From the sequence record SRR31156797_2770: 20,342 nt of DNA; one strand, given 5' to 3'. A program made the translations under genes and the position numbers. Below the pieces are notes generated by a model. It had not been told where the DNA came from. It saw nothing but the letters and a program-made list of their open reading frames with translations, and searched no databases. Of the stretch, positions 2,934 to 20,342 are shown in pieces (the first letter of the stretch is position 1; every line of letters starts with the position of its first letter).

Positions 2934-4634
2934 CTACTTTTCTAGCAGTTCGAGGAGGGCCCGATGAAAGGCCTCCATCTCCTCCGCGGTCTGTAGAAAA
3001 ACATCGGGATGACTGTGATGGCTGTCGATCATCCAGTGTTTCGTGTCTGTAACTTTAAGAAAATCTGCTACTACGGCGTCGGTTTGCTGCGGTTGTGCAG
3101 CTTGAGCGGTCTTCAAGAGATAGAAATCTTCAATCCCCCGCTGTAGTTGTTTATACCTTAGGGACAACAATAAATGTCCGTGATTGCCAGGATAGACGAA
3201 ACAAAGATCACCGATCGGTAGTGAGCTCGTATTGTACCGAATATCGGACCGAGCATGTTCTGGCCAGCAATTGTAGGCCCAACGCAGAAAGCCGTCTGTT
3301 TTGAACTGATACGATAAGATTCCTTGCATTCGCGTCTCTAACAAGGGACTATGCAAAAAGGTATTTGGTTTGTCGGGATAATTGCAGACATAGTACTGCA
3401 TCTTGCCCGGATGGCTTTGTGCTAGTGTTTCGTAATGGTTGCAAGTACAGTAATAGGAAGTCACAGGATGATCGATCACTGGCAGCAGCTCAAATAACAC
3501 GTCTTCTTTATCAAAAGCAGATTTGATCTGGATCGACGGATCAATTTCTTTTAAAACAGCTAACGAGGCTCGGAAACTGTCGATTTGATGTTTCTTCGGT
3601 TCGTCAGAAACGATGCGAACCTTCTCCCACAGATTCTTTCCTTTAAAATAATCAAATACTTGGCGTAGATACTCCTGCAACTCAGCTTTTTGATGAATAA
3701 AGCCAAAGGCGCCTTTCCCCTCATCATAAAAGCGAATCACCAATTTTTCTGGATGGTCCAAGTTGACTAACGGAAAAAATGGCGGTTCCCAGACCCCTAA
3801 TAAACCAAACACATCAATTTCATCTTTGATGCCCGCAGCAAAAAAACAATCAAGGTAACGTGTCAGCACAGAAAAATCGCAGGAAAGTTCTCCGTCTGGT
3901 GTCTTTTTGACCTTTACCATCGAATACTCATATAAATTGGCGGGATAATCTTTGACGATGTAATTGAACCAGCCCTTCCAAGGGATCTCTCCGGCGATCA
4001 CTGTGATCGCTTTTTGTCCGATCGCAGCGAGACTCTCAGCCATTTCCTTGATCAAGTCAAAGTGGGCATCGCTCCATAACGGAACGTCAAAGGTGCGAGC
4101 CAAATTGCTGGGCTGCTGCCACATATTTAAGTGGAACGTTTCTAAATATTCTTTTGGAAAAGTAAAAGTGTCCACTTCAATCGTTAGGTTCTTTTCTAAC
4201 AAGCACTCCTCTTGGCTAGTCAAGTGTGCCCGATAGACCTTGATTTTCACGGGATAAACTTTCGGTTTGATTGTCTCATCGATCTGCCACTCCAAATAAA
4301 GAGGCGCAAAGCGATCGCCAGGATAGGTTTTGGCAGTTCGTTCAAGCAATTTATCGGCGTACGCCAATTCCTGCTGACCGACATAATAATCGACGAATTG
4401 CGCTTTGACCGGCAATTCGCTAAAAATCTCAACACGTATCATGGGAATCTCGATTTCATCGGGGATCGAAAACTCGTCACCAATAATATAATGATTGCGA
4501 TTGCCATCGTGCAGCAGCAACTGACAAGCAGCAGTACTGTTACGAACAGCTGATAACTGTTCAATCGCTTGTGGCTCTTGAGTGATCAATTCTGTTGAAG
4601 CCTTATAGCTTTCATGGACCAGGATTGCTTTCAT
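2934..4634 (-). CDS. DUF4091-domain protein, GH123-like putative glycoside hydrolase
   Basis: 566 aa, no signal peptide. 'SDEP' adjacent acid pair, 'GFLRWAYNCW', and the DUF4091-type C-terminal motif 'GDLCFVYPG...SLRYKQLQRGIEDF'. Confidence 0.7.
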   Translation of the reverse strand: MKAILVHESYKASTELITQEPQAIEQLSAVRNSTAACQLLLHDGNRNHYIIGDEFSIPDEIEIPMIRVEIFSELPVKAQFVDYYVGQQELAYADKLLERTAKTYPGDRFAPLYLEWQIDETIKPKVYPVKIKVYRAHLTSQEECLLEKNLTIEVDTFTFPKEYLETFHLNMWQQPSNLARTFDVPLWSDAHFDLIKEMAESLAAIGQKAITVIAGEIPWKGWFNYIVKDYPANLYEYSMVKVKKTPDGELSCDFSVLTRYLDCFFAAGIKDEIDVFGLLGVWEPPFFPLVNLDHPEKLVIRFYDEGKGAFGFIHQKAELQEYLRQVFDYFKGKNLWEKVRIVSDEPKKHQIDSFRASLAVLKEIDPSIQIKSAFDKEDVLFELLPVIDHPVTSYYCTCNHYETLAQSHPGKMQYYVCNYPDKPNTFLHSPLLETRMQGILSYQFKTDGFLRWAYNCWPEHARSDIRYNTSSLPIGDLCFVYPGNHGHLLLSLRYKQLQRGIEDFYLLKTAQAAQPQQTDAVVADFLKVTDTKHWMIDSHHSHPDVFLQTAEEMEAFHRALLELLEK

Positions 4635-4636
4635 CT

Positions 4637-5608
4637 TTACTCTTCCTTTCTAGGATCAATCAGCTGCAAAACAAGCGCTTGATAAGAAACATTCTCAAAA
4701 GCTTCTGGCATGATCGTTACTAGTTGCTGCAAGCTGATGTTTTTTACGATTTTTAAGTGGCTTTTGTCTGCCCATGATGGAAAAGCCTGCAACAGCAAGC
4801 GTTTGTTTTCACCTGACTCGAGTAATGCCCGAATTGGCCACTGCCCTAAATCAGGAAACAAAGCTGGCTGGGCAACTTTATCTGCCCAGTTCAACTCTAG
4901 CCATTCGACGCATTCATCAAACCAACGGGCAAAACGTGGATCAACCATTTCTTTACGATTACCGAAGCGTTCGGTCGCCAAAGAAAGACCGTGACGTCCT
5001 TTTTGGAAAATATGACTTTCAAAGGGAACCTCGTGATCTTCTAGGGCCTGCAGATACGCCAATGAATTTTCGATAGGAACGACATTGTCTTCAAAGGTTG
5101 AAAACAAAAAGGTGGGCGGCGTATCTTTTGTGACACATTCCTCTAATGAAGGGGCATCGATCTTCATCACAGTAGCAAATGAAGACAATATCGCTGGGTA
5201 GCCTAAAATACATAAGCTTGGTTTCATTGAGGAGAGTGTTGATAACGCCGCTGCCAAATGGCCGCCGGCAGAAAAGCCGATCACAGCGATTTTTTCGGCA
5301 TCGACTTCCCATTCACTTGCAAGTTCTCGGATTTTAGTAATCGCTTTTTCTGCATCTGCTAAGGAATGGCTGAAACTGCGATGTGTCCCTACATGATAGC
5401 GTAAGACCCCGGCGTGAAAGCCTTGGGCAGCAAAATTTAAGGCAATCGGCTCAGCTTCCCGCTCACTGCAAAAGGAGTAGCCGCCACCGGGAATCACCAA
5501 GACAAACGGACGATCGCCCACCCGTTCATACTCGGCTTTTTCCTCATGCAGGTACACTGTCAAACCGGCTTGCGCTTCTGGATCAAATAGATATTCCTGA
5601 AAAAACAT
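4637..5608 (-). CDS. Alpha/beta-hydrolase esterase (acetyl/feruloyl-esterase-like) with a C-terminal extension
   Basis: PGGGY oxyanion motif, GFSAGG nucleophile elbow, D(NVVP) acid and H(GLSL) catalytic His. Confidence 0.85.
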   Translation of the reverse strand: MFFQEYLFDPEAQAGLTVYLHEEKAEYERVGDRPFVLVIPGGGYSFCSEREAEPIALNFAAQGFHAGVLRYHVGTHRSFSHSLADAEKAITKIRELASEWEVDAEKIAVIGFSAGGHLAAALSTLSSMKPSLCILGYPAILSSFATVMKIDAPSLEECVTKDTPPTFLFSTFEDNVVPIENSLAYLQALEDHEVPFESHIFQKGRHGLSLATERFGNRKEMVDPRFARWFDECVEWLELNWADKVAQPALFPDLGQWPIRALLESGENKRLLLQAFPSWADKSHLKIVKNISLQQLVTIMPEAFENVSYQALVLQLIDPRKEE

Positions 5609-5611
5609 CGC

Positions 5612-7865
<2,254 letters not shown>

Positions 7866-7883
7866 ATGTGCCACTTCCTTTGT

Positions 7884-9236
7884 TTACGCTTGAATTTCTT
7901 CCACGACTTTTTCTGTCATTTTTGCTGCTTCACTTGCTTGCTTTTTTTCAGCAGCCATTTCTAATTCGTACTCTTTTTTATCCGCAATTTTTAGAAACGG
8001 ATACCACATAACAATACCGATCAGCATACAGATGATCATTAAGATCGTGTAGTTAAGCCCTCCTGAAAAGGGCATTTTGATAAAAGTCGGTGTGGTCCAT
8101 GGCAATAGACTCATGGTTGGATTCAAGCTGATTGGGAGGATCGTTGTTGCCAATCCCCAGGTCACAAAGCCAGCGATCAATTGTGTAAAGACTTGCGGAA
8201 TAAAGAACAACGGATTCAAAATAATCGGCATCCCGAACATGATTGGCTCTGTGATGTTAAAGATCGACGGGATAAACGACAATTTTCCTAATTGTTTCAT
8301 TTTTGCCGATTTGCTGCGGATCATAAAGAAGGTCACAAAGCCCATGAAGCCAGCAGCATACATGCCCATATAAATCACTGAAGGAATCAGATAAGGCAGC
8401 GCTTGTCCTTGTTGGTAAGCGGCAATATTTGAAACGACCATGGTCATACTAATCGCCCCGAGTGGTCCTTGTAAAACTGCATTATGAATTCCGAAAAACC
8501 ATAAAACAGCTAATAATTCCATAATGATGATGATCGATAGCGGGCTGGCAACTAAGGAGTTCAACGGCGCATTGATCACATCGATAAAGAATTGGAAAAT
8601 CGAACCGGATGAAGTAAACCCAAATAAGACACGTAAGACAAAGACGACTGCAAAAATGATCGTGACAACAAACACTGGTGCTAAAGATTGGGTTACCATT
8701 GGGGGAACACTATCCGGTAGCTTGATCATAATGTTTTTTCTCGATAAGAAAGCATAAAAGCGAGTGACCAACAAAGCGGTCAGCATGCCGATAAACAGTC
8801 CTTGCCCGCCTAAGAAATCAAGCTTCAAGGCACCAATCGTTTGTTCCACTGCTTGGCCATCTTGCATGACAGTTGTTGCGACGGTTTGTGGCATCAACAT
8901 AATGAAACTAGCTAAAGAAATAATCGCTGAATTGCGTTCATTGCTTCCTAATTGTTTTGCGTAAGAATACGCCAAACTGTATACAACATACAAGGCAAAA
9001 ACGCCAGTTGCTCCGTTGGTGATCGCTTCAACATGCTGGAAGATGCCAATTTTCGTCAAATAGTCCGTCCAACCAGGAATCGGAAAATTTCCAATGATCG
9101 TGATAAACGCAATTCCTAAAGTGATGGGACTTGTTCGAATAAAACCCTCCATCAAAGCGGCCAATACTTTGTTTTGTTGTAATTTTTGTGACATTGGTAA
9201 TAGTTTGCTACTTAAAAATGCTTCTAATTTTTCCAT
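7884..9236 (-). CDS. PTS EIIC component, lactose/cellobiose (Lac) family, with no adjacent EIIA/EIIB
   Basis: 450 aa polytopic membrane protein with LGGQGLF, IKLPDSVPPMV, WFFGIH, FNITEPIMFGMPIILNP and WYPFLK motifs. Confidence 0.92.
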   Translation of the reverse strand: MEKLEAFLSSKLLPMSQKLQQNKVLAALMEGFIRTSPITLGIAFITIIGNFPIPGWTDYLTKIGIFQHVEAITNGATGVFALYVVYSLAYSYAKQLGSNERNSAIISLASFIMLMPQTVATTVMQDGQAVEQTIGALKLDFLGGQGLFIGMLTALLVTRFYAFLSRKNIMIKLPDSVPPMVTQSLAPVFVVTIIFAVVFVLRVLFGFTSSGSIFQFFIDVINAPLNSLVASPLSIIIIMELLAVLWFFGIHNAVLQGPLGAISMTMVVSNIAAYQQGQALPYLIPSVIYMGMYAAGFMGFVTFFMIRSKSAKMKQLGKLSFIPSIFNITEPIMFGMPIILNPLFFIPQVFTQLIAGFVTWGLATTILPISLNPTMSLLPWTTPTFIKMPFSGGLNYTILMIICMLIGIVMWYPFLKIADKKEYELEMAAEKKQASEAAKMTEKVVEEIQA

Positions 9237-9255
9237 TCTTTCTCACTCCTTTAGT

Positions 9256-11457
9256 TTAGATCGTTACACTAAGCATCGTTTCTTTTTGATCGATCCGCAT
9301 TAGGAATCGATAAGTACCTTTGGTTATGTGTTTCTTCCCTTGATTGTCATAGAAAACAAGTTCTGACAACGGCAGTGACAATCTGCGCTCTTTTTCTTCT
9401 TGGGGCGCGAATGAGATGAGGTCACTCGCAATTAATTGGCGACTTGGACGAACCATTGCCGCTGGGCGCTGCATGAGATAAATTTGGATGACGGCTTCTG
9501 CCGCTGTTGCCGATTGGTTTTTCACTCGATAAGCCAAATGGATTGTCTCGCTAGATACTTCACTACCAAGCCATTCACCAGTAAACGAACTGTAACTAAG
9601 ACCTGTTCCGAATGCGAATAAGGGTTCATTTGATTCATCGCGGTATTTTGACAAAAAGCGATCAGAATGCTCACTATCTGTCAAAGGTCTGCCCGTTGGC
9701 AGTTGGGCACTGTATAGTGGGATCTGTCCTTCACTCCGAGGAAAGGTCATCGCCAGTTTTGCCGTCGGAGAAGCCTGCCCACTCAACAGATTGGCGATCC
9801 CGATCCCGCCCATCGTTCCTGGATACCATACGAGCAACAGACTATCAAATAATGCTTCCACTTGTGTTAAGACTAACGGTCTGCCAGTGTAAAGCACGCC
9901 AATCAAAGGCTTGCCAGTTTTTTTCAACGCTTGGATCAAACGAATTTGTTTCAATGGCAGCTGCAAATGAGCTTTTGATGCCCCTTCGCCGCTCTCCAAA
10001 AACTGCTCTCCAAAAGTCAAGACGATAACTTCGGCGGCTTCGGCGGCTTCCATGGCTTCCAAAAGCAACTGATCTTCTGGTTCGATCGGTCCATTCAGCT
10101 GTTCGATCCCGGCTTTTAAAGGACCAAATTTCTCATACGAGTCGAATAGATTGTATCCACGAGCAAAAATCAAGTTTTCGGGTGCGAAATGCTGCAGCAA
10201 ACCGGTTTTTAAAGGAATCGTGTCTTGTGGCTTGCCGCTGACTGACGCCCAAAAACCTAAGGTCAACCGGCTTTCTCCATAAGGACCGATCACAGCGACG
10301 GTTTGGTCCTTTTTCAAAGGTAAGCTGCCCTCATTTTTTAACAGCACACAGCTTTTTTCTACTAGCTTAACGGCTAGCTCTTTGGCTTTATCCGACAAAA
10401 CCTCTCCAGTTTGTTGCGTTTTCAACCCTCGATAGGGTTCCTCAAACAAACCTAATTGATTTTTTAGTACGAGAATTCGCCAGACTGCTTCATCCAGCAA
10501 CGCGGCTAATTCGGGTTCTTTAATCAGTTCTGGCAAGTGCGTCGCATAGACCGATGTCATCATATCAAAATCAACGCCCGCTTCCAAACCTTTCTGAGCG
10601 GCCTCCCGTTCATCTTTGACAAAACCGTGGGGGACCAATTCTTTGATGGCGGCATGATCGGAGACCAGTACCCCATCAAAACCGAAACGTTCGCGCAAAA
10701 TCTCTCGGTTCAACCAGCGGCTACCCGTTGCAGGTTCACCATTCAATATGTTGAAGGCCGTCATCACTAGCAGTGCTTGGGCTTCGATCGCCGCTTGATA
10801 GGGTTGCAAATATTCATTGAATAAGCGCTGATTGGACATATCGACCGTATTGTATTCTCTGCCCGCTTCGGGTGCACCATAACCAGCAAAATGTTTGATG
10901 CAAGCAGCAACGTGATTTTCTGCCACTCCTTGATCAAGATTGCCTTGGTAGCCGGTCACGACGCTTTTAGCAAAACGTTTTGCCGTATACACATCCTCTC
11001 CTGGCGACTCCATCACTCTGCCCCAGCGAGGATCGCGAACAAGATCCAGCATGGGTGAAAAGATCACATGAAGGCCATTTTGGTAACATTCTTTGGCGGT
11101 CATCTCAGCGGCTTGCCCGATCAAATTAAAATCGTAGGAACCTGCTTGGGCAAGGGGAATCGGAAAAATCGTTCGAAACCCGTAGATGACGTCCGACATA
11201 AACAGCATAGGAATCTTTAGTCGGCTGTGTGCTAACGTTTCCCTCTGTAACTGAATCAATTTTTGGTAATCGTTCACATTATAAATCGAACCAATCTCGT
11301 GAATCTTCAAATTTGGTGGAAGCCCTAAATCTTGCATCGGGCCAGTAGTCATCACCTCATTTTCAATGACTAAACTGCCATTCAATTGAATCGTCTGAGC
11401 GATTTTTTCTTCTGGCGTCAATTGCTGAAACAATTCTTTCAATTTTTTACTATCCAT
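9256..11457 (-). CDS. Cytoplasmic GH3 beta-glucosidase (BglX-like) with C-terminal Fn3-like domain
   Basis: RDPRWGR, KHFAGYG, VSD nucleophile, SGEGAS acid/base region, PLFAFGTGLSYS. No signal peptide. SD GAAAGGAG. Confidence 0.92.
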   Translation of the reverse strand: MDSKKLKELFQQLTPEEKIAQTIQLNGSLVIENEVMTTGPMQDLGLPPNLKIHEIGSIYNVNDYQKLIQLQRETLAHSRLKIPMLFMSDVIYGFRTIFPIPLAQAGSYDFNLIGQAAEMTAKECYQNGLHVIFSPMLDLVRDPRWGRVMESPGEDVYTAKRFAKSVVTGYQGNLDQGVAENHVAACIKHFAGYGAPEAGREYNTVDMSNQRLFNEYLQPYQAAIEAQALLVMTAFNILNGEPATGSRWLNREILRERFGFDGVLVSDHAAIKELVPHGFVKDEREAAQKGLEAGVDFDMMTSVYATHLPELIKEPELAALLDEAVWRILVLKNQLGLFEEPYRGLKTQQTGEVLSDKAKELAVKLVEKSCVLLKNEGSLPLKKDQTVAVIGPYGESRLTLGFWASVSGKPQDTIPLKTGLLQHFAPENLIFARGYNLFDSYEKFGPLKAGIEQLNGPIEPEDQLLLEAMEAAEAAEVIVLTFGEQFLESGEGASKAHLQLPLKQIRLIQALKKTGKPLIGVLYTGRPLVLTQVEALFDSLLLVWYPGTMGGIGIANLLSGQASPTAKLAMTFPRSEGQIPLYSAQLPTGRPLTDSEHSDRFLSKYRDESNEPLFAFGTGLSYSSFTGEWLGSEVSSETIHLAYRVKNQSATAAEAVIQIYLMQRPAAMVRPSRQLIASDLISFAPQEEKERRLSLPLSELVFYDNQGKKHITKGTYRFLMRIDQKETMLSVTI

Positions 11458-11470
11458 GTTTACTCCTTTC

Positions 11471-11484
11471 TGTAACCGTTTTAT
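11471..11484. promoter_or_regulatory. Putative cre (CcpA) site at the start of the GH3 operon transcript
   Basis: TGTAACCGTTTTAT matches 12/14 positions of TGWNANCGNTNWCA and lies between the -10 and the SD. Confidence 0.6.
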
Positions 11485-11492
11485 TTATCTGA

Positions 11493-11498
11493 ATTATA
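11493..11498 (-). promoter_or_regulatory. -10 box of the GH3 operon promoter (poor -35, probably activator-dependent)
   Basis: TATAAT on the minus strand; the hexamer 17 bp upstream is TATATC. Confidence 0.65.
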
Positions 11499-11553
11499 GA
11501 AAGAATCCTTCCTTAGATATACTAAAAAACTAGTGTTTATAATAAATTGTTTA

Positions 11554-11581
11554 TTGAATGCTAAAAAATTTACGTTATACT
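11554..11581 (+). promoter_or_regulatory. Putative sigma-A promoter of the AraC gene
   Basis: TTGAAT-N16-TATACT. Confidence 0.5.
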
Positions 11582-11617
11582 AAAAGAAAAAACAATGTTT
11601 GGACTTTGAGGTGTCTC

Positions 11618-12793
11618 ATGAACAAAACAACACTTACGACCGCCATGGATCTGCTTTATCGCAAATATTTGATCCCGATGATTCTCTTGGATCAAGAAGG
11701 GACTCCGCTGTATCCCCCACTCACCTTAACAGCTAAGAATCCTCTGAAACACTATTTGGAAGAAACGAACGGCCCAGTTGCAAATCTCTATCATTTCGGC
11801 AAATATATGCTTGGTTGTTTTGCGTTTCAGTTAGCTGGAAAAACCTGTTATATGGTCATCGGTCCCTGTGGAGTGATTGGTACACCAGATACGTCTTACC
11901 TATTTCTTGAACATGAATACCACTACAATGTGCACTATTCCAAAGAAGACAAATACTCCTTTGAAGAATACATCCAGCTGCTTTATACGCTGTTTGCGGA
12001 GCAGCCGTTGGCAAAAGACCAAATCCATTGGCATTACCAAACTGAATCCCACGACCGATCCATGCAAACAGATCTTAGCTTGGAAACCAATCTTTATGAA
12101 CGCCGTGTGCATGAAGCTACCTTTGATTCCTATCATTTTGAATTGCGCTATCTTGACTACATCAAACGAAACGAGCCGGAAAAAGTAGTCTGGGTATTTA
12201 ACAAAATGAAAGAGACCTACAGTGTTTCCCTTTCCCCTCATGAACTGGAAGGCTTAAAACTAAAGTTTTCGGCCTTTGTCGCTGTCGTGACCCGCATGAG
12301 CATTGATGAAGGAGTACCAGTCAACCAAGCATTCGGCTTATCTGATTCATTGATCCAAGGTCTGGTTTATATTCATTCTGCCGAGGAGTGCCTCCGCTAT
12401 ATCAAAGAAGCCACCTACCGCTTTATGGAGCTTCTGCATAGCTATCCGCTGGCGCAAAAATCACTGTTGGTCAAGACGATTGTTAATTATGTCGACAGCC
12501 ATCTCTATGAAAAAGTGACCATTGATGATCTCGCAGCCATCACTCAAAAACATAAGACCCATCTATGTAATCAGTTCAAAAAAGAAATGAACAAAACGAT
12601 CCACAGCTACATTCAGGAACGAAAGATCAGCGAAGCCAAGCATCTATTGCTGTTCACAGATTTTTCCTACGAAAAAATCAGCACCCAGTTGGCATTCGCC
12701 AATCAAAGCCATTTTATCCGCAATTTCAAAGCCGTTACCGGGCAAACACCAAAAGAATTTAAAGAGAAACATTACGCTCATGCTTTAAGTTAA
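11618..12793 (+). CDS. AraC/XylS-family transcriptional regulator with a large N-terminal sensor region
   Basis: C-terminal double HTH (TIDDLAAITQKHKTHLCNQFKK ... LAFANQSHFIRNFKAVTGQTPKEF). SD GAGGTG precedes ATG 11618 (391 aa), not 11558. Divergent from the glycoside operon. Confidence 0.9.
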   Translation: MNKTTLTTAMDLLYRKYLIPMILLDQEGTPLYPPLTLTAKNPLKHYLEETNGPVANLYHFGKYMLGCFAFQLAGKTCYMVIGPCGVIGTPDTSYLFLEHEYHYNVHYSKEDKYSFEEYIQLLYTLFAEQPLAKDQIHWHYQTESHDRSMQTDLSLETNLYERRVHEATFDSYHFELRYLDYIKRNEPEKVVWVFNKMKETYSVSLSPHELEGLKLKFSAFVAVVTRMSIDEGVPVNQAFGLSDSLIQGLVYIHSAEECLRYIKEATYRFMELLHSYPLAQKSLLVKTIVNYVDSHLYEKVTIDDLAAITQKHKTHLCNQFKKEMNKTIHSYIQERKISEAKHLLLFTDFSYEKISTQLAFANQSHFIRNFKAVTGQTPKEFKEKHYAHALS

Positions 12794-12899
12794 AGACACA
12801 ATTTCCGAAAAAATGCTCAGAAACAATGGTTATTATTTTTAATAACAAACGTTGTAAGCTATCCTTTTACTCAAATCAATTTGAATGAGGAGAGATAAA

Positions 12900-13157
12900 A
12901 TGATCCAACTTGCTCGCTTGATCTTTTGGGTACCAGTCATCTTTTTTTCGTTAGGATTGATCATCGTAACGAAACGATTGCCGCGTTTCACATGGGTTTC
13001 CTTATCCATCACGGTTTCTTTAGTGATCTTTGTTTGTAAGATTTTAGAGTATTCCTATACGATGCCTGACATGCAGCTAACTTTCTATTTTATGGGTTTC
13101 TTGATTTCGGCTAGTCTTCTTTGTTTTATTTTCTACTTGAGGATCAGAAAACGGTGA
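12900..13157 (+). CDS. Small hypothetical membrane protein (85 aa, about 3 TM)
   Basis: SD GAGGAG 7 nt before ATG 12900. Three hydrophobic segments and a basic C-terminus (RIRKR). Confidence 0.7.
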   Translation: MIQLARLIFWVPVIFFSLGLIIVTKRLPRFTWVSLSITVSLVIFVCKILEYSYTMPDMQLTFYFMGFLISASLLCFIFYLRIRKR

Positions 13158-13265
13158 ATGACAGTGGCGGGTTTTCCACGTAAATTAGTCAGGTCCCCAG
13201 TAACTAAGGACCAATAGCTTCATCAAATACACGGGTTTCTTCCTATCTTTTTAAAGAACTCCCCT

Positions 13266-13286
13266 CCCCTGAAAAGGGGCTTTTTT
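13266..13286 (+). terminator. Intrinsic terminator downstream of the 85-aa membrane-protein gene
   Basis: CCCCT-GAAA-AGGGG-C-T6. Confidence 0.65.
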
Positions 13287-13412
13287 ATTGCTAGTTCTGA
13301 TTCTAACCTCAAGCTTACTGTGTTACTCTAGAAAGATTCGAATCAAAATACAAGGATGTGCCACTCGTTTTTCTCCCCCCTTCCTGCACACGATCGTTAT
13401 TCCATGAGCTCC

Positions 13413-13441
13413 TTGCCTTTTTAACGAACTAAATATATAAT
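13413..13441 (+). promoter_or_regulatory. Sigma-A promoter of the 61-aa membrane-protein gene
   Basis: TTGCCT-N17-TATAAT. Confidence 0.7.
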
Positions 13442-13503
13442 GAATTTGCAAAATAATAACACAAAAGAACAAATCATCTATCCTCATAAAAGGAGCTTAC
13501 CCT

Positions 13504-13689
13504 ATGAACTGGCTGACCTTTGTCGTCCAACCACTGACCCTGCTGTTTTTTCTTACAGTATTCTCTCTCGTCTATTTGATGCCCGAATCCCTTGTGCCTA
13601 AGCCCAAAATGAAAAAATGGGCGTTGACTGTTTCTTTGATTTATCTAGCATGGCAGCTGCTGATTCCCTTTTTCTTCTTTCTTTACTGA
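13504..13689 (+). CDS. Small hypothetical membrane protein (61 aa, 2 TM hairpin)
   Basis: SD AAAGGAG 8 nt upstream, own promoter and terminator. Two hydrophobic helices joined by a Lys/Pro-rich loop (PKPKMKK). Confidence 0.72.
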   Translation: MNWLTFVVQPLTLLFFLTVFSLVYLMPESLVPKPKMKKWALTVSLIYLAWQLLIPFFFFLY

Positions 13690-13696
13690 GCACAAC

Positions 13697-13728
13697 AAAA
13701 AAGCGGCTCTCTTTTTGAGAGCCGCTTT
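13697..13728. terminator. Bidirectional terminator, mainly for the minus-strand bgl operon
   Basis: A6-GCGGCTCTC-ttttt-GAGAGCCGC-TTT. Confidence 0.88.
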
Positions 13729-13737
13729 GGTTTATTT

Positions 13738-15249
<1,512 letters not shown>

Positions 15250-15298
15250 TCAGCAAGAAAGCATTCTTACTGATCCTACGACGTGCCGATAAACGCAT

Positions 15299-17200
15299 TT
15301 ATTTTACGACTTCGATCAAATTGTCGTTCGCTGTTACTTCTTTTGACTGTGTCGTTTGGATGTCACTGTAGTCGTTAGAGTTTGTGACGATGACTGGTGT
15401 CAGTAAGGAATAGCCTTCCGCACGAATCGCTTCAGTATCAAATGAGATCAATTTTTGACCGGCTTTGACTTTGTCTCCTTGGTTGATGTAGGCAGTAAAG
15501 TGATTGCCTTCAAGTTCCACCGTATTCATGCCGATGTGGATCAATAATTCTGTCCCATCCTCAGTGACTAAGCCGATGGCATGTTTTGTTGGAAACAAGA
15601 TTTTGACTTCTGCATCTGCTGGAGCAGTGATTTCACCGATCGCTGGTTCAACGGCGATCCCTTTTCCCATAGCACCTGAAGAAAATACTTTGTCTTCCAC
15701 ATCTGCTAAAGCAACCACTTGACCGGTTACTGGACTTTTGACTGTTTCATCTTTGACGCTGGCAGAAACGGTTTTTACTTCTGGTGCTGGTGCTGCTGGT
15801 GTTGCTTGACCGTCGACTGGTGAATCAACAGTTGTATACAAAGTTGGTACTTTCAATAACATCATGATGATAAATGACGCTACGATTGCAATAACTGTAC
15901 CGATGGCTAAGTGGATCACGCTATGGAAGCTGCCTGTTGCTGGATCGATATATGCAGGATACAAGAAGATGCCCATACCGCCCATTGCGTAACCAGTGAC
16001 GTTAAAGATTGACAAGTAGATACCGACGAAACCTGAAACTAAACAAGAAACGATAAATGGTGTTTTCATTGGCAAAGTATAACCGTAGATCGCAGGTTCA
16101 GTCACACCGAAGATCGATGAGATCAATGCTGGCATTGCGCCTTGTTTGACTTTTGGTTCTTTCGTTTTCAACCAAATCGCTGCTAACACACCCGTTTGCG
16201 TGAAACATGGTAGCACTGCGGCGGTCAAAATAATCGAAGAACCGTTTTGCGCCATATCCATGATCGCCAATGGCACAAGACCCCAATGAAGACCAAACAT
16301 TACCAATACTTGCCATAATGCCCCTAAAGCAAATCCATAAATGATTGGGCTGAAATCATAAACCGCTTGGAAAGCAATACCGATCCAGCTAGATGCTGTA
16401 TTTGCGACTGGACCTACCACAAAGAAGGTCAACGGCACAGTGATCAAAATCGTTACAAAAGGAACCACAAACATTTTGACTACATCAGGTGTAACTTTGC
16501 GCATAAACTGTTCAATTTTCGAAGCGACAAAAATCGCTAAAATAATCGGCAGTACGCTATTAAAGTAGCCACCTGCTGGTAAGGTCAAGGTTAGACCAAA
16601 GACTTTGCTCGCTTCAGCAACGCTTTCTGCTAAACCAGGATAGACCATCGCACCTGCAATCGCTAATGCTGTATAGGTATTCATCTTGAATTTCTTTGCA
16701 GCAGTTACGGCTAAGATCATAGGTAAGTATTGGAACAAACCATCGCCTAGGGTATTCATTACTACATAGATTCCATTGGTCGCTTCCATCCCAGTTGCTG
16801 CAAGTAGCGCCGTGATCCCTTTTAAAATACCGGCTGCCGCTAATGGACCTAAGAACGGTTGAAACAAGCTTGAGATGACATCGATAAAGCGGTCAAACAA
16901 ACTGCCTTTCTTTTCGTCGCCTTCGTCGATATCAAGACTGCCGCCATCGGCTAATCCGCCGACTTTCAGCACTTCATCGTAAACATCTGGCACATGATTA
17001 CCGATAACCACTTGGTATTGTCCGCCTGCTTTGACAACGGTCACGACACCGTCACGTTTTTGCAAATAATCTGTGTCTGCTTTGCTTTCGTCTTTTAAGT
17101 GGAAACGTAAGCGAGTCACACAGTGTTTTACAGAAGAGACATTTTCTTTGCCGCCAACGTGGGCCAAAATGTCTTGTGCTAATTCAGTATATTTTGCCAT
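15299..17200 (-). CDS. bglP: PTS beta-glucoside-specific EIIBCA (BglF/BglP)
   Basis: EIIB HCVTRLRF, EIIC FGLHWG and FGVTEPAIYG, Ala/Pro linker, EIIA TKHAIG and LIHIG. Preceded by a RAT/terminator. Confidence 0.93.
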   Translation of the reverse strand: MAKYTELAQDILAHVGGKENVSSVKHCVTRLRFHLKDESKADTDYLQKRDGVVTVVKAGGQYQVVIGNHVPDVYDEVLKVGGLADGGSLDIDEGDEKKGSLFDRFIDVISSLFQPFLGPLAAAGILKGITALLAATGMEATNGIYVVMNTLGDGLFQYLPMILAVTAAKKFKMNTYTALAIAGAMVYPGLAESVAEASKVFGLTLTLPAGGYFNSVLPIILAIFVASKIEQFMRKVTPDVVKMFVVPFVTILITVPLTFFVVGPVANTASSWIGIAFQAVYDFSPIIYGFALGALWQVLVMFGLHWGLVPLAIMDMAQNGSSIILTAAVLPCFTQTGVLAAIWLKTKEPKVKQGAMPALISSIFGVTEPAIYGYTLPMKTPFIVSCLVSGFVGIYLSIFNVTGYAMGGMGIFLYPAYIDPATGSFHSVIHLAIGTVIAIVASFIIMMLLKVPTLYTTVDSPVDGQATPAAPAPEVKTVSASVKDETVKSPVTGQVVALADVEDKVFSSGAMGKGIAVEPAIGEITAPADAEVKILFPTKHAIGLVTEDGTELLIHIGMNTVELEGNHFTAYINQGDKVKAGQKLISFDTEAIRAEGYSLLTPVIVTNSNDYSDIQTTQSKEVTANDNLIEVVK

Positions 17201-17369: not shown

Positions 17370-18212
17370 TTAGGTTAATTTTGAGTGAGCGGCTAAGTTA
17401 CCGATATGCAGAATCAAATACATCAATTCCATATCGTTGACATGCCAGCCCTTTTGTTCAAATAAGTATTCTTTGATCGAATCTGCGGTTTCTTTTTCTT
17501 TCGGATAGCTGCTGAAAGCCAAGGCAATCATCGGATTAGCCAATACTGGCTCTTCTTTTTCTTGACTTTGTCGAATTAAATAATAGCGAATGTGGGTCAC
17601 AAACCGTTGGAAGTAGGAAGAATTCTCATCGTACTCGATGTTCATGCTATACTTAACGATCCGTAAAATATTGTTGGTCAACTCGGTGTGCTCATAGGCA
17701 CTTTGATTGGCGCTTTTTTCAATTTGCGCATTGACGAAATGCAAAGTGATAAACGCAGCTTCTTCTTGCGAAAAATCGGGATACAGCTCTTTGCGGATCA
17801 ACTCGACCGCTTGGACACTGACCGCATATTCCTTGGCATAGATTTTCTTGATTTCCCAATGCATGGGATTGGTCAAAACAATTTCTTGCTTTTGACGACT
17901 GATGGCAAACAAGATATGATCCATCAGTGTGAAATAAACGTTTGGATTGAAATCGGTTCCAACACTTTCCCGAAAAAGACGCACGATTTCATAAATGACG
18001 GCCATTTGTTTCTCGTCAGCCTTCGTCATGACTTTCGACATATGTTCCACTGTCAAGTCATCTTCTGGGTAGTATTTTTTTTCGATTCGCTCAGCCGGAA
18101 TCAGGTCACCCGGTTTCGTTTGAAAGCCGATCCCTTTTCCCATTAGGATCACTTCAACTTCATCTTCTTTTGAAAGTACAACATTGTTGTTGATCCTCTT
18201 GATAATCTTCAC
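17370..18212 (-). CDS. licT: BglG/LicT-family PRD-domain transcription antiterminator
   Basis: CAT domain (KIIKRINNNVV...MGKGIGF) and four PRD histidines (LMDHI, ITLHF, VTHIR, ILHI). SD AAGGAGG precedes GTG 18212 (280 aa). Confidence 0.93.
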   Translation of the reverse strand: MKIIKRINNNVVLSKEDEVEVILMGKGIGFQTKPGDLIPAERIEKKYYPEDDLTVEHMSKVMTKADEKQMAVIYEIVRLFRESVGTDFNPNVYFTLMDHILFAISRQKQEIVLTNPMHWEIKKIYAKEYAVSVQAVELIRKELYPDFSQEEAAFITLHFVNAQIEKSANQSAYEHTELTNNILRIVKYSMNIEYDENSSYFQRFVTHIRYYLIRQSQEKEEPVLANPMIALAFSSYPKEKETADSIKEYLFEQKGWHVNDMELMYLILHIGNLAAHSKLT

Positions 18213-18379
18213 GAACGATCCTCCTTGATCAGCATAGCGCATACACAGCTTTGCATCGTTTGACGTCTATGCAGAAGGTCTTGTATTTTTTTCTTTCTCT
18301 GACTTGCCATTAAGTGACGAGGTGAATGTCTGCTCCAGGCAGTACTGCAGGATATCGTCAAACCTAGCTGGCACTTCAT
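18209..18379 (-). CDS. Possible 56-aa upstream ORF whose stop overlaps the licT start
   Basis: MKCQLGLTISCSTAWSRHSPRHLMASQRKKKIQDLLHRRQTMQSCVCAMLIKEDRS*. Its TGA overlaps the licT GTG (GTGA). A purine-rich AAAGGAGGGGAG lies 12 nt upstream, which is long spacing. Confidence 0.25.
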   Translation of the reverse strand: MKCQLGLTISCSTAWSRHSPRHLMASQRKKKIQDLLHRRQTMQSCVCAMLIKEDRS

Positions 18380-18467
18380 TGCGTTTTACTTCTCCCCTCC
18401 TTTGATGATCAATGACTGGACCTTACCTTGGAACCGGTTCTTTTTTAGCGAATAGAAATAATGGAGC

Positions 18468-18545
18468 AAAAAAAGAAGACCAAAGCAAAAAAGTGTACAA
18501 CCCAAGAAACTTTGGGTAATCAATGCACTTTTTTCCTCTGGTCTT
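18468..18545 (-). terminator. Conditional terminator t1 upstream of licT
   Basis: AAGACCAGAG-GAAAAAAGTG...ACCCAA-agtttc-TTGGGT...CACTTTTTT-GCTTTGGTCTT-C-T7. Confidence 0.85.
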
Positions 18546-18568
18546 GCCTGCCGAACAGTAACGAATCC
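18540..18568 (-). promoter_or_regulatory. RAT upstream of licT
   Basis: GGATTCGTTACTGTTCGGCAGGCAAGACC; 27/29 identical to the downstream RAT and overlapping terminator t1. Confidence 0.92.
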
Positions 18569-18602
18569 AGTAATGAGAACACTCTCGTGTTCCGTTGAGA
18601 TA

Positions 18603-18631
18603 ATAGTACTCATTCTGAGAAAAAATGTCAA
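18603..18631 (-). promoter_or_regulatory. Sigma-A promoter of the licT-bglP-GH1 operon
   Basis: TTGACA-N17-TACTAT with an A-rich UP region upstream. Confidence 0.85.
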
Positions 18632-18640
18632 CACTTTTTT

Positions 18641-18654
18641 TGCAAACGTTTTTC
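18641..18654. promoter_or_regulatory. Possible cre site just upstream of the licT -35
   Basis: TGCAAACGTTTTTC has the AAACGTTT core but three mismatches to TGWNANCGNTNWCA. Confidence 0.4.
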
Positions 18655-18766
18655 TTTTTTTGTTTTTGACTTTTTTTCACTATCTTTCTCACTGAATTTC
18701 TTTTCTAGCTTTGGTCTTTTAGTTCACTTGAAATACAAGGTTTACTGTGTAGCACAATAAGACCAC

Positions 18767-18796
18767 AAAAAAACCGTAATCTTCGTGCATTACGGT
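18767..18796 (-). terminator. Intrinsic terminator ending the rgg-divergent transcript
   Basis: Minus strand ACCGTAAT-gcacgaag-ATTACGGT followed by a T-tract (7 T in total). Confidence 0.85.
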
Positions 18797-19107
18797 CATA
18801 GCTGGAAGTATGATGCTTGAAAGACGATCAATCACAAAGAATCAGAAAATTGGGGAAGGTCTGGTGCATGACAGACATTCAACGGGACTGACCACCTTGC
18901 GCGATTCATGCGTTTCATGACTTCCACAAACGAAAAGGTCTCTTTGAGTGGGGGAATCAACCAAATAACCTTTCGATTCTTCAAGATCTTCTCTTTCCTG
19001 CTTAGAATGTTCGCAGTTCGCCGCGAAAAAAGCAGAACGTAAACTAAATTTCATTTATCAATCTGTCACTGATCCTTCAATGACAAGTATCTAAATGAAA
19101 GCCTGTA
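18767..19107 (-). ncRNA. Putative structured non-coding 3' region or sRNA of the rgg-divergent transcript
   Basis: No ORF with a convincing SD. Several nested inverted repeats, two UUCCCC motifs, and a terminator at the end. Confidence 0.45.
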
Positions 19108-19158
19108 CTAGTTTTTAAATGGGTTGATTTCCCAAGGACCAAATGGTTCAAATTCCAT
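19108..19158 (-). CDS. 16-aa peptide MEFEPFGPWEINPFKN divergent from rgg (candidate signalling peptide)
   Basis: SD AAAGGAGGT (19167-19175) 8 nt before the ATG, TATAAT at 19193-19198, TAG at 19108-19110. Below the ORF-track length cutoff. Confidence 0.7.
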   Translation of the reverse strand: MEFEPFGPWEINPFKN

Positions 19159-19180
19159 GAAAAACGACCTCCTTTATTAT

Positions 19181-19209
19181 TTGCTATACCCTATTATATT
19201 TGATAACAT
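19181..19209 (+). promoter_or_regulatory. Putative rgg promoter overlapping the divergent peptide promoter
   Basis: TTGCTA-N17-TAACAT. Confidence 0.45.
19193..19198 (-). promoter_or_regulatory. -10 box of the peptide/sRNA promoter (no consensus -35)
   Basis: TATAAT on the minus strand; the hexamer 17 bp upstream is GATTTT. Confidence 0.65.
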
Positions 19210-19260
19210 GTTATTAAAATCACATTGTTCAGAAATGCGTCACAATTAAGGAGGTCCCCC

Positions 19261-20124
19261 ATGAAACAGCAAGGCTCTTTAATCAAAAAACTGCGCACAG
19301 ATCGCAAAATCTCGCAAGCCAAGCTTGCCGAAGGTATTTCCTCTCGCACCACCCTTTCTTCTTTCGAAAATCGCAAAACAAATCTCTCTTCACAAACCTT
19401 GTTTGACTACTTAGACAAAATGAATATCACGGTTCATGAGTTCAGTCTGTTGATCGACAGCGAAGCCACAGGACAGAAACGTCAGCTGGTGCAAGATTTC
19501 TATACCCGATACTATGATCGAACACTGACTATCGACTACTTGACTAGCCTTGAGGAACGCTACTTTGAGACACAAAATTTTTTTTATTATTCTTTGTATG
19601 TCCAAGGCCTGCTGCTGCTCAACCGTGAATCATTTCTGATGAATCGAGGAGCTTACACCCAAGAAGTTGAACTGGTAAAGCAATACTTGTTTGATATCGA
19701 AACCTGGGGGCGCTTTGAGTTGAACTTATTCTCAAATTTGTTATTTATTTTCGACCAAGAAACCATCAGTTACTATTTAGATCATGGGATCAAAAAAATT
19801 CTTCGCTATGCCAATGATCCCTTTTATGCAAATCTGTTAAGTGTTGTGATCTTAAATGGCTGCGCCTTTGCCAGTGAAAGTAAGGATTCCTATCTGCTTA
19901 ACAAGTTTCTGCTTTTGTCTCATCCCTTGCCTAATACACCTCTGTATTTTTATTTGAAAATCCATCAAGTCTTGTATCAAGAAATTTACTCCTATTTGCA
20001 ATCTTCTCAATTAAACAAAGAAGTGTTAAGAAACAGCTTAATCGTTATCGAACAAGCCGGTTACCAGAACCATAAAAATGACCTGCAAAACTTGATTCAT
20101 ACCGTGACGAATATCTCCATTTAA
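19261..20124 (+). CDS. Rgg/GadR/MutR-family (RRNPP) transcriptional regulator
   Basis: 287 aa from ATG 19261 (SD AAGGAGGT). XRE HTH (GSLIKKLRTDRKISQAKLAEGISSRTTLSSFEN) and the Rgg signature YLFDIETWGRFELNLFSN. Confidence 0.9.
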   Translation: MKQQGSLIKKLRTDRKISQAKLAEGISSRTTLSSFENRKTNLSSQTLFDYLDKMNITVHEFSLLIDSEATGQKRQLVQDFYTRYYDRTLTIDYLTSLEERYFETQNFFYYSLYVQGLLLLNRESFLMNRGAYTQEVELVKQYLFDIETWGRFELNLFSNLLFIFDQETISYYLDHGIKKILRYANDPFYANLLSVVILNGCAFASESKDSYLLNKFLLLSHPLPNTPLYFYLKIHQVLYQEIYSYLQSSQLNKEVLRNSLIVIEQAGYQNHKNDLQNLIHTVTNISI

Positions 20125-20179
20125 CATTCTTCCCTTTGAATCATCCTATATACTTACAAGCATGATTTATCTTTTTCGT

Positions 20180-20215
20180 AAACGCCTGTCTGCTCATTGA
20201 AGGACAGGCGTTTTT
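20180..20215 (+). terminator. Intrinsic terminator after rgg
   Basis: AAACGCCTGTC-N12-GACAGGCGTTT-TT. Confidence 0.8.
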
Positions 20216-20243
20216 CAGTCAAATGCTGGCCTAACTTGTACAC

Positions 20244-20279
20244 AAAAAACCAGTTAGGTGCGTAGACCTAACTGGTTTT
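20244..20279 (-). terminator. Terminator of a convergent transcript entering from the right edge (may be bidirectional)
   Basis: AAAAAACCAGTTAGGT-gcgtag-ACCTAACTGGTTTT, a 14-bp perfect stem. Confidence 0.8.
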
Positions 20280-20342
20280 CGGGCTAAAATCTTAGAACGT
20301 ATCTGGTTTATCCTGACCCAGATTTGATTTTGCACAACTCAT

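Follow-up and report, generated by a model that had tools for sequence, protein, structure and literature searches.

Among Rgg-type regulators, those with a nearby pheromone gene have been found mainly in streptococci (survey in PMC9765709). The described systems closest to the locus analysed here are those of RopB with its peptide SIP and the wider LCP class, in which an ultra-small ORF led by a Shine-Dalgarno (SD) sequence lies divergent from an Rgg-type receptor and encodes a peptide that lacks a basic-hydrophobic signal. LCPs usually have 8-10 residues, almost wholly aliphatic or aromatic, with longer and charged exceptions allowed (PMC10518010). In the related receptor NrpR, two residues, N152 and N192, contact the peptide backbone (PMC12186490). 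Here, we describe a locus of the same general layout in a stretch of 20,342 nucleotides (record SRR31156797_2770; hereafter the window), together with a family of related peptide genes.

A divergent micro-ORF beside rgg

The gene for an Rgg-family regulator of 287 residues occupies positions 19261-20124 on the plus strand of the window. Since named relatives of its product, at 92-93% identity, come from E. innesii and E. casseliflavus, the window probably belongs to the E. casseliflavus group. Divergent from rgg, with 102 nt between the two start codons, a micro-ORF of 16 codons runs from ATG to TAG on the minus strand (19158..19108); it is preceded by an SD (19175-19167, minus strand) with an 8-nt spacer to the ATG and by a perfect -10 hexamer (19198-19193, minus strand) without a -35. 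These elements, including the distance of about 100 bp from rgg, had been noted in an initial reading of the DNA without database searches (the sequence-only reading), and all were confirmed. The encoded peptide is net acidic, with three prolines and polar C-terminal residues. Its three x-Pro-aromatic triplets, which that reading had pointed out, are indeed present, but what the family described below conserves is instead a tryptophan core, W-[E/D]-[I/V], which starts at residue 9 of this peptide.

The 16-residue peptide is unchanged in all three genomes in which the Rgg is 92-99% identical (L001-L003), and its SD is invariant across the three aligned loci. Between L002 and the window, the ORF shows two synonymous and no non-synonymous codon changes, and 19 of the 45 nt past its stop differ; at the same time, close orthologues conserve the whole intergenic region, beyond the ORF alone. 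Judged from these alignments, the 16-codon gene is real, conserved and under selection, and the SD together with codon-level conservation suggests that the peptide is translated.

The hexamer 17 nt upstream of the peptide -10 is far from the -35 consensus, and a scan of 17500-20342 for consensus two-hexamer promoters returned eight sites, none of them at the peptide promoter. A 17-bp imperfect inverted repeat, TGAC-N9-NNCA (19226..19242, unstranded), identified by eye 27 nt upstream of this -10 and adjoining the SD of rgg, is a candidate Rgg box. By eye, L004, L005, L008 and L009 show the same pattern 27-28 nt away from a hexamer resembling a -10, and L009, L059 and L083 show perfect palindromic variants; the candidate box also occurs at receptors that lack a peptide. 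ComR and MutR boxes lie at a comparable distance of about 24 nt from the -10 (PMC11848300). A regulon search using one box pattern gave 1, 2 and 3 matches in G001, G003 and G008 versus 2, 3 and 3 for the control, and thus brought no regulon to light. Between the box and the -10 there is also a perfect 12-bp palindrome (19203-19214), not observed at distant loci, which overlaps a weak (8/12) candidate rgg promoter at 19181-19209.

The peptide gene is followed by an untranslated trailer of about 310 nt (18772..19107, minus strand), closed by a hairpin resembling an intrinsic terminator (18797-18772). Its distal part is conserved in L002 and L003 and has no Rfam family, both matches of an Rfam search of the trailer falling far below the gathering score; in the non-coding, single-copy stretch 18772-18990, conservation in L002 exceeds that of the 120 nt past the peptide stop. 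The structure z-score of the trailer is -2.4. A comparison of the trailers of 18 loci showed likeness among close kin only, and none with distant loci. A 40-codon ORF in the trailer was rejected as a gene because its changes in L002 are almost all non-synonymous. The stretch is present in 18 RNA runs; in the four examined it takes the form of contigs, two of which cover the whole 3 kb in one piece and are DNA-like. In one run a deeper contig spans 18802-20281 and ends 5 nt from the terminator, a hint from a single study that proves nothing.

This locus has no co-transcribed target gene. The module is flanked by a BglG-type antiterminator/PTS operon and by an OppA-like gene (SBP_bac_5), and in three other genomes of the genus these two neighbours lie adjacent, with no rgg module between them. 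Because the OppA-like gene is found at the syntenic site in all three of these genomes, its presence here is not evidence of linkage. The antiterminator gene is an unlikely target, since it has a consensus promoter of its own (18631-18603) and the terminator-like hairpin closes the trailer. We therefore propose that the output is either a gene located elsewhere or the RNA of the 310-nt trailer. Elsewhere in the window, we recognised from the sequence a beta-glucoside use cluster (2934-17200), with two GH1-like genes, one GH3-like gene and PTS, ROK and AraC genes, and noted small hydrophobic ORFs of 90 and 61 aa (12885-13157 and 13504-13689) without a Pfam match.

A family of peptides with a tryptophan core

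Receptor homologues were sought in sets of 61, 134 and 401 genomes, their flanks were fetched, and the divergent strand was read for SD-led ORFs of 8-35 aa that start 60-330 nt from the receptor start and contain W-[E/D]-[I/V/L] (W-core peptides). Such a micro-ORF was present in 26 of the 97 distinct receptor rows, compared with a mean of 0.4 and a maximum of 2 of 97 rows in 40 rounds of first-order Markov shuffling, and with 0/97 on the opposite strand. The motif was first noticed in batch one (11/33) and recurred in the hold-out batch (15/64); the 97 rows are related, and hence are not independent trials. The 26 positive rows cover genera g1, g2, g4, g8, g9, g14 and g16 of the window's family, with receptors down to about 25% identity, and further members were found in other families (L149, L166, L180, L184, L185). 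Across 26 streptococcal rows there was a single W-core label, itself doubtful. In the class-wide search, 15 of the 401 genomes matched at E<=1e-28, with nothing above 138 bits outside the nearest genome, G001; two phage matches were also seen. Receptor identity correlates with peptide-core similarity (Spearman 0.38, 37 rows, 0/2000 permutations), a figure inflated by kinship. Together with the family counts, this bears out the expectation of the sequence-only reading that a conserved, co-varying micro-ORF would accompany orthologues of this Rgg.

A wider pattern, W-[EDSQN], labelled 46 of 171 rows, of which 42 were kept once L202, L167 and L071 (doubtful labels) and L082_p5561 (a duplicate) had been removed before the motif table was made. 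The 42 rows yield 35 distinct peptides of 8-28 aa from seven genera of the window's family and three other families, with 1-13 variable residues ahead of the Trp and a Trp-to-end piece of 6-23 residues. Most are net acidic (28/35), 34 have a net charge of zero or below, and only one has K or R within its first six residues, so that the absence of a basic N-terminus of the SHP kind, remarked on at the outset for the one peptide, holds for nearly the whole family. Several members have a hydrophobic N-terminal half. Motif columns 0 to +3 are imposed by the search pattern and are not evidence; in columns free of the pattern, Pro occupies +4 in 15 peptides and +5 in 12, and Pro or Gly occupies -1 in 16. 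Pairs with receptors 82-92% identical gave synonymous to non-synonymous ratios of 2:0 (L002/window), 2:0 (L040/L005), 5:1 (L042/L005) and 2:1 (L009/L010), with 16-30 mismatches in the 45 nt past the stop, and at 60-64% receptor identity non-synonymous peptide changes dominate. By these comparisons, conservation centres on the Trp and on the acidic and then aliphatic positions that follow it, often with a Pro four to five residues later, and the eight-residue piece from Trp9 to the C-terminus would be the likeliest active part of the peptide encoded here.

In 15 of the 32 divergent loci, the peptide gene is followed within 850 nt by a long ORF of the same direction; in 10 it faces an opposite-strand gene, in five (this locus included) the next gene is more than 1 kb away, and in two the flank is too short. 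We count the 10 loci that lack a co-directional gene and the five with a remote one against a pheromone loop. The genes after the peptide include ABC and MFS transporters, a ketosynthase, an AraC regulator, SdpI, a transposase and an ETX/MTX2-family protein, and six of those scanned have no Pfam match. The ETX_MTX2 gene (a pore-forming toxin family in Pfam) lies at L015:2604-3557, directly after a W-core peptide gene. A different arrangement characterises a chitinase-linked clade, in which it is a GH18 chitinase gene that lies divergent from rgg, with an LPMO gene after rgg. Here, the W-core gene comes after the chitinase in 9 of 14 loci, on the opposite strand in eight and as three same-strand tandem copies in L103; four of the others have no W-core gene and one is doubtful. 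In L102 it lies about 1.1 kb off, behind other ORFs. Three peptide types of these loci have 8 aa and begin Met-Trp. The L103 copies (4225-4835) are 8-codon genes, two of them identical. This freedom of position and strand, and the triplicate copy, favour a product that acts in trans.

Other small genes were observed beside Rgg-type receptors. L166, L180, L184 and L185 encode W-D peptides with Gly-rich tails that appear halfway between SHP and LCP, next to receptors sister to the RopB/LCP group. In L154-L160 and L017 (family f5), a separate receptor subclade is accompanied by another divergent type of 20-23 aa, with a hydrophobic N-terminal half and an acidic end in Pro. Unrelated divergent micro-ORF types, each in two to three loci, are found in L168/L181, L171/L175, L169/L172 and L072/L086/L071. 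On a conjugative E. mundtii plasmid (NZ_CP018062.1; L224, 2248-4882), two Rgg copies accompany an unannotated 14-codon Trp peptide gene that precedes a radical SAM gene.

The receptor and possible roles of the peptide

The window's Rgg has the N-terminal HTH and the Rgg C-terminal TPR-like domain of Rgg/GadR/MutR (RRNPPA) regulators (HTH_3; Pfam Rgg_C 49 bits, cut-off 27; TIGR01716 47.4, cut-off 36.9). Its structure model (pLDDT 89.8) matches Rgg2, NrpR, PrgX, Rgg144 and Rgg3 at TM 0.67-0.79, with NrpR best at 0.79 and Rgg2 at about 0.7, and NrpR-NIP (9LTH) is the best PDB match to the receptor clade profile (E 1.8e-36). N159 and N199 align with the pocket asparagines N152/N192 of NrpR/RopB, and W149, N159, N199 and K73 are each present in 33/33 main-clade receptors. 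K73 opens the first TPR helix, and 4/4 LCP rows have Glu in its place; as it is also found in peptide-less members it is a clade marker, and a role in reading the peptide's acidic residue would be a guess. The pH-sensing H144 position of RopB/LCP is Arg in this Rgg.

In a FastTree phylogeny of 171 rows, in which the root is not settled, long branches meet and the RopB clan is thinly sampled, the W-core receptors belong to a clade of 101 rows (SH-like 99) that excludes four LCP rows and two SHP-labelled rows; four further W-D peptides belong to a six-row receptor group sister to the LCP rows (97). A kept W-core peptide accompanies 38 of the 101 clade members, a proportion that we count against a pheromone; the rest include Trp-bearing variants outside the pattern (L043, L054, L068, L073, L098) and many short flanks. 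The three nearest non-orthologous receptors (L038, L004 and L039, 41-44% identity) had no W-core peptide by our filter in 13-14.5 kb each and retain both the box and K73, so that such receptors may be able to function with no peptide gene nearby. In L011 and L012 the box, the -10 and the codons of the core persist, but an SD and a start are lacking; these are possibly the remains of decayed peptide genes next to intact receptors. In the nearest genome, G001, there is also a second receptor, a paralogue (31%), which is paired with a W-core peptide of 23 aa (L059:3411-3600; also L060 and L061) and so offers a natural specificity control.

Taking all ligand readings together, it is very likely that the peptide is the ligand of its receptor. 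The sequence evidence points, with fair probability, to an activating pheromone loop as in RopB/LCP, in which a peptide of an undescribed class supplies its Trp-to-end piece as ligand. In such a loop, the architecture suggests that Rgg would bind the inverted-repeat box at an activator position upstream of the -35-less peptide promoter. The peptide would leave the cell without a classical signal sequence, in LCP fashion, and might shed its variable N-terminal residues before re-entering. By homology to NrpR/RopB, the Trp-[acidic]-aliphatic core would then dock in the TPR groove, with N159 and N199 holding its backbone, and Rgg with its bound peptide would activate the promoter that carries the box, so that the loop feeds back positively and targets are turned on. 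At many loci, these targets would be the genes after the peptide (exported or biosynthetic) or the GH18 chitinase facing rgg. Against a pheromone, we know of no export route for an acidic peptide without a hydrophobic core.

The cognate ligand might instead stay inside the cell and form a positive-feedback or bistable switch with Rgg, which would suit both the many stand-alone cassettes and the lack of signal-peptide features (charge <=0 in 34/35, K/R in the first six residues in 1/35). However, LCPs, which have no signal features either, do act between cells (PMC10518010), and several members have hydrophobic N-terminal halves; we consider an internal ligand unlikely.

The sign of the response might also be reversed, with apo-Rgg activating and the peptide, made from the activated promoter, shutting it off by negative feedback. 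Such feedback is given by iCF10 in PrgX signalling. The peptide-less receptors of L038 and L004 retain the box before target genes, as expected of an active apo-Rgg, and displaced peptide genes converge on the chitinase rather than leading it. Yet the described peptides of Rgg-SHP, RopB-LCP and MutRS activate (PMC10518010, PMC11848300), and inhibition appears decidedly unlikely.

That the peptide is an output under Rgg control, as a RiPP precursor or small effector, is suggested by radical-SAM genes near some relatives (plasmid locus L224; CxxxCxxC-bearing ORFs after L074 and L082), Trp being a common cross-link site. Since neither this locus nor the other stand-alone cassettes have a modifying enzyme, and the same core occurs beside chitinase, ABC, MFS and ketosynthase genes, we regard this as very improbable. 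Scarcely to be expected is a cis-acting leader or ribosome-arrest peptide controlling the trailer or a downstream gene: a structured trailer with a terminator does follow, and the Trp and Pro-Pro close to the stop bring to mind TnaC and other arrest peptides, but anything between 6 and 23 residues separates Trp and stop, copies are found on both strands, lacking any following gene, and as a set of three, and no sequence similarity links this trailer to those of distant loci. A chance ORF in a conserved promoter region, with which the intergenic conservation among close orthologues would agree, has a negligible probability given the shuffle and opposite-strand controls and the synonymous bias, and for the family as a whole the hold-out count refutes it.

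Comparison with described Rgg systems

We found no description of the W-core family in the literature within our scope, outside which lay subscription papers and bioRxiv supplements; a search with six peptide fragments returned one, unrelated, paper. The accessible supplements of PMC10518010 (fragment searches) and PMC10075063 gave no match, although some W-core peptides may be listed unremarked among the 975 RopB homologues and flanking sORFs of PMC10518010 Supplementary Data 1. Many Rgg-type regulators count as orphans, and the family supplies a list of enterococcal receptors and peptides that can be tested as pairs; their predicted active core could be made synthetically within days. It bears on how leaderless signals originate and exit, and on how enterococci associated with insects, plants or the gut might tie chitin use and exported products to cell density. 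We tentatively suggest, as something close to an even chance, that the Rgg branch has one more peptide class, typical of Enterococcaceae, whose leaderless, acidic members combine an unvarying Trp core with N-terminal extensions that vary freely and range from 8-aa LCP-like to 28-aa forms. If this is true, many orphan enterococcal Rgg regulators would gain ligands, including the chitinase/LPMO-linked one in most genomes of one genus; the class would need an export or trimming route new to science; paralogues, and listener receptors that have no peptide of their own, could engage in cross-talk; and cassettes that stand alone, as here, would act via distant genes or trailer RNA.

Among chromosomal enterococcal RRNPP pairs with a small ORF, the E. 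faecalis NAPHQ/NVPHV system offers a parallel, but there the 20-aa propeptide carries a signal sequence of 15 aa and has a pentapeptide at its C-terminus, and the system is confined to the E. faecalis lineage (PMC11343167). MutRS (SHP group III) resembles the W-core family in its Pro and aromatic residues and in a regulator box that precedes the -10 by about 24 nt, whereas mutS is convergent, downstream and equipped with a basic-hydrophobic leader, and the gene here is divergent, upstream and leaderless (PMC11848300). Rgg/SHP groups I-II of streptococci share the divergent layout and the fold (PMC12445099, PMC13361665), and acidic followed by aliphatic residues recall the start of mature SHP as reported there. 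W-core peptides nevertheless lack the Lys-rich N-terminus, hydrophobic leader and C-terminal Gly-Gly of the SHPs described in those accounts, have an invariant Trp before the acidic residue, and belong to a separate receptor clade (two SHP-labelled rows compared); mature SHPs start with D/E, are hydrophobic and usually end in Gly, whereas the 16-aa peptide ends in polar residues.

The RopB/SIP and LCP systems come closest, with the same ultra-small, SD-led divergent ORF and the same lack of a basic-hydrophobic signal. The shortest W-core members, at 8 aa, have a Met-Trp start as LCPs do, and the equivalents of N152/N192 are retained. The sequence-only reading had proposed a cognate ligand for an enterococcal Rgg that belongs to neither the SHP nor the SIP type; the family comparisons support this proposal well, but these short members make the type less than wholly foreign to LCPs. 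In contrast to the all-hydrophobic LCPs, W-core peptides are acidic with a Pro-rich core and extend from 8 to 28 aa, with up to 13 residues ahead of the Trp; the 16-aa peptide, net acidic with three Pro, falls outside LCP size and composition. The W-core receptors lie outside the RopB/LCP group (FastTree, four LCP rows, RopB clan thinly sampled), and the E. casseliflavus LCPs that appear in PMC10518010 are other peptides. From its sequence, the 16-aa peptide looks like an N-terminally extended, acidic relative of the LCPs in style, set on a separate receptor clade. The best reading of the locus is a putative variant of Rgg peptide signalling that would work in an LCP-like way and that, by the features compared here, stands outside the LCP, SHP and MutS classes.
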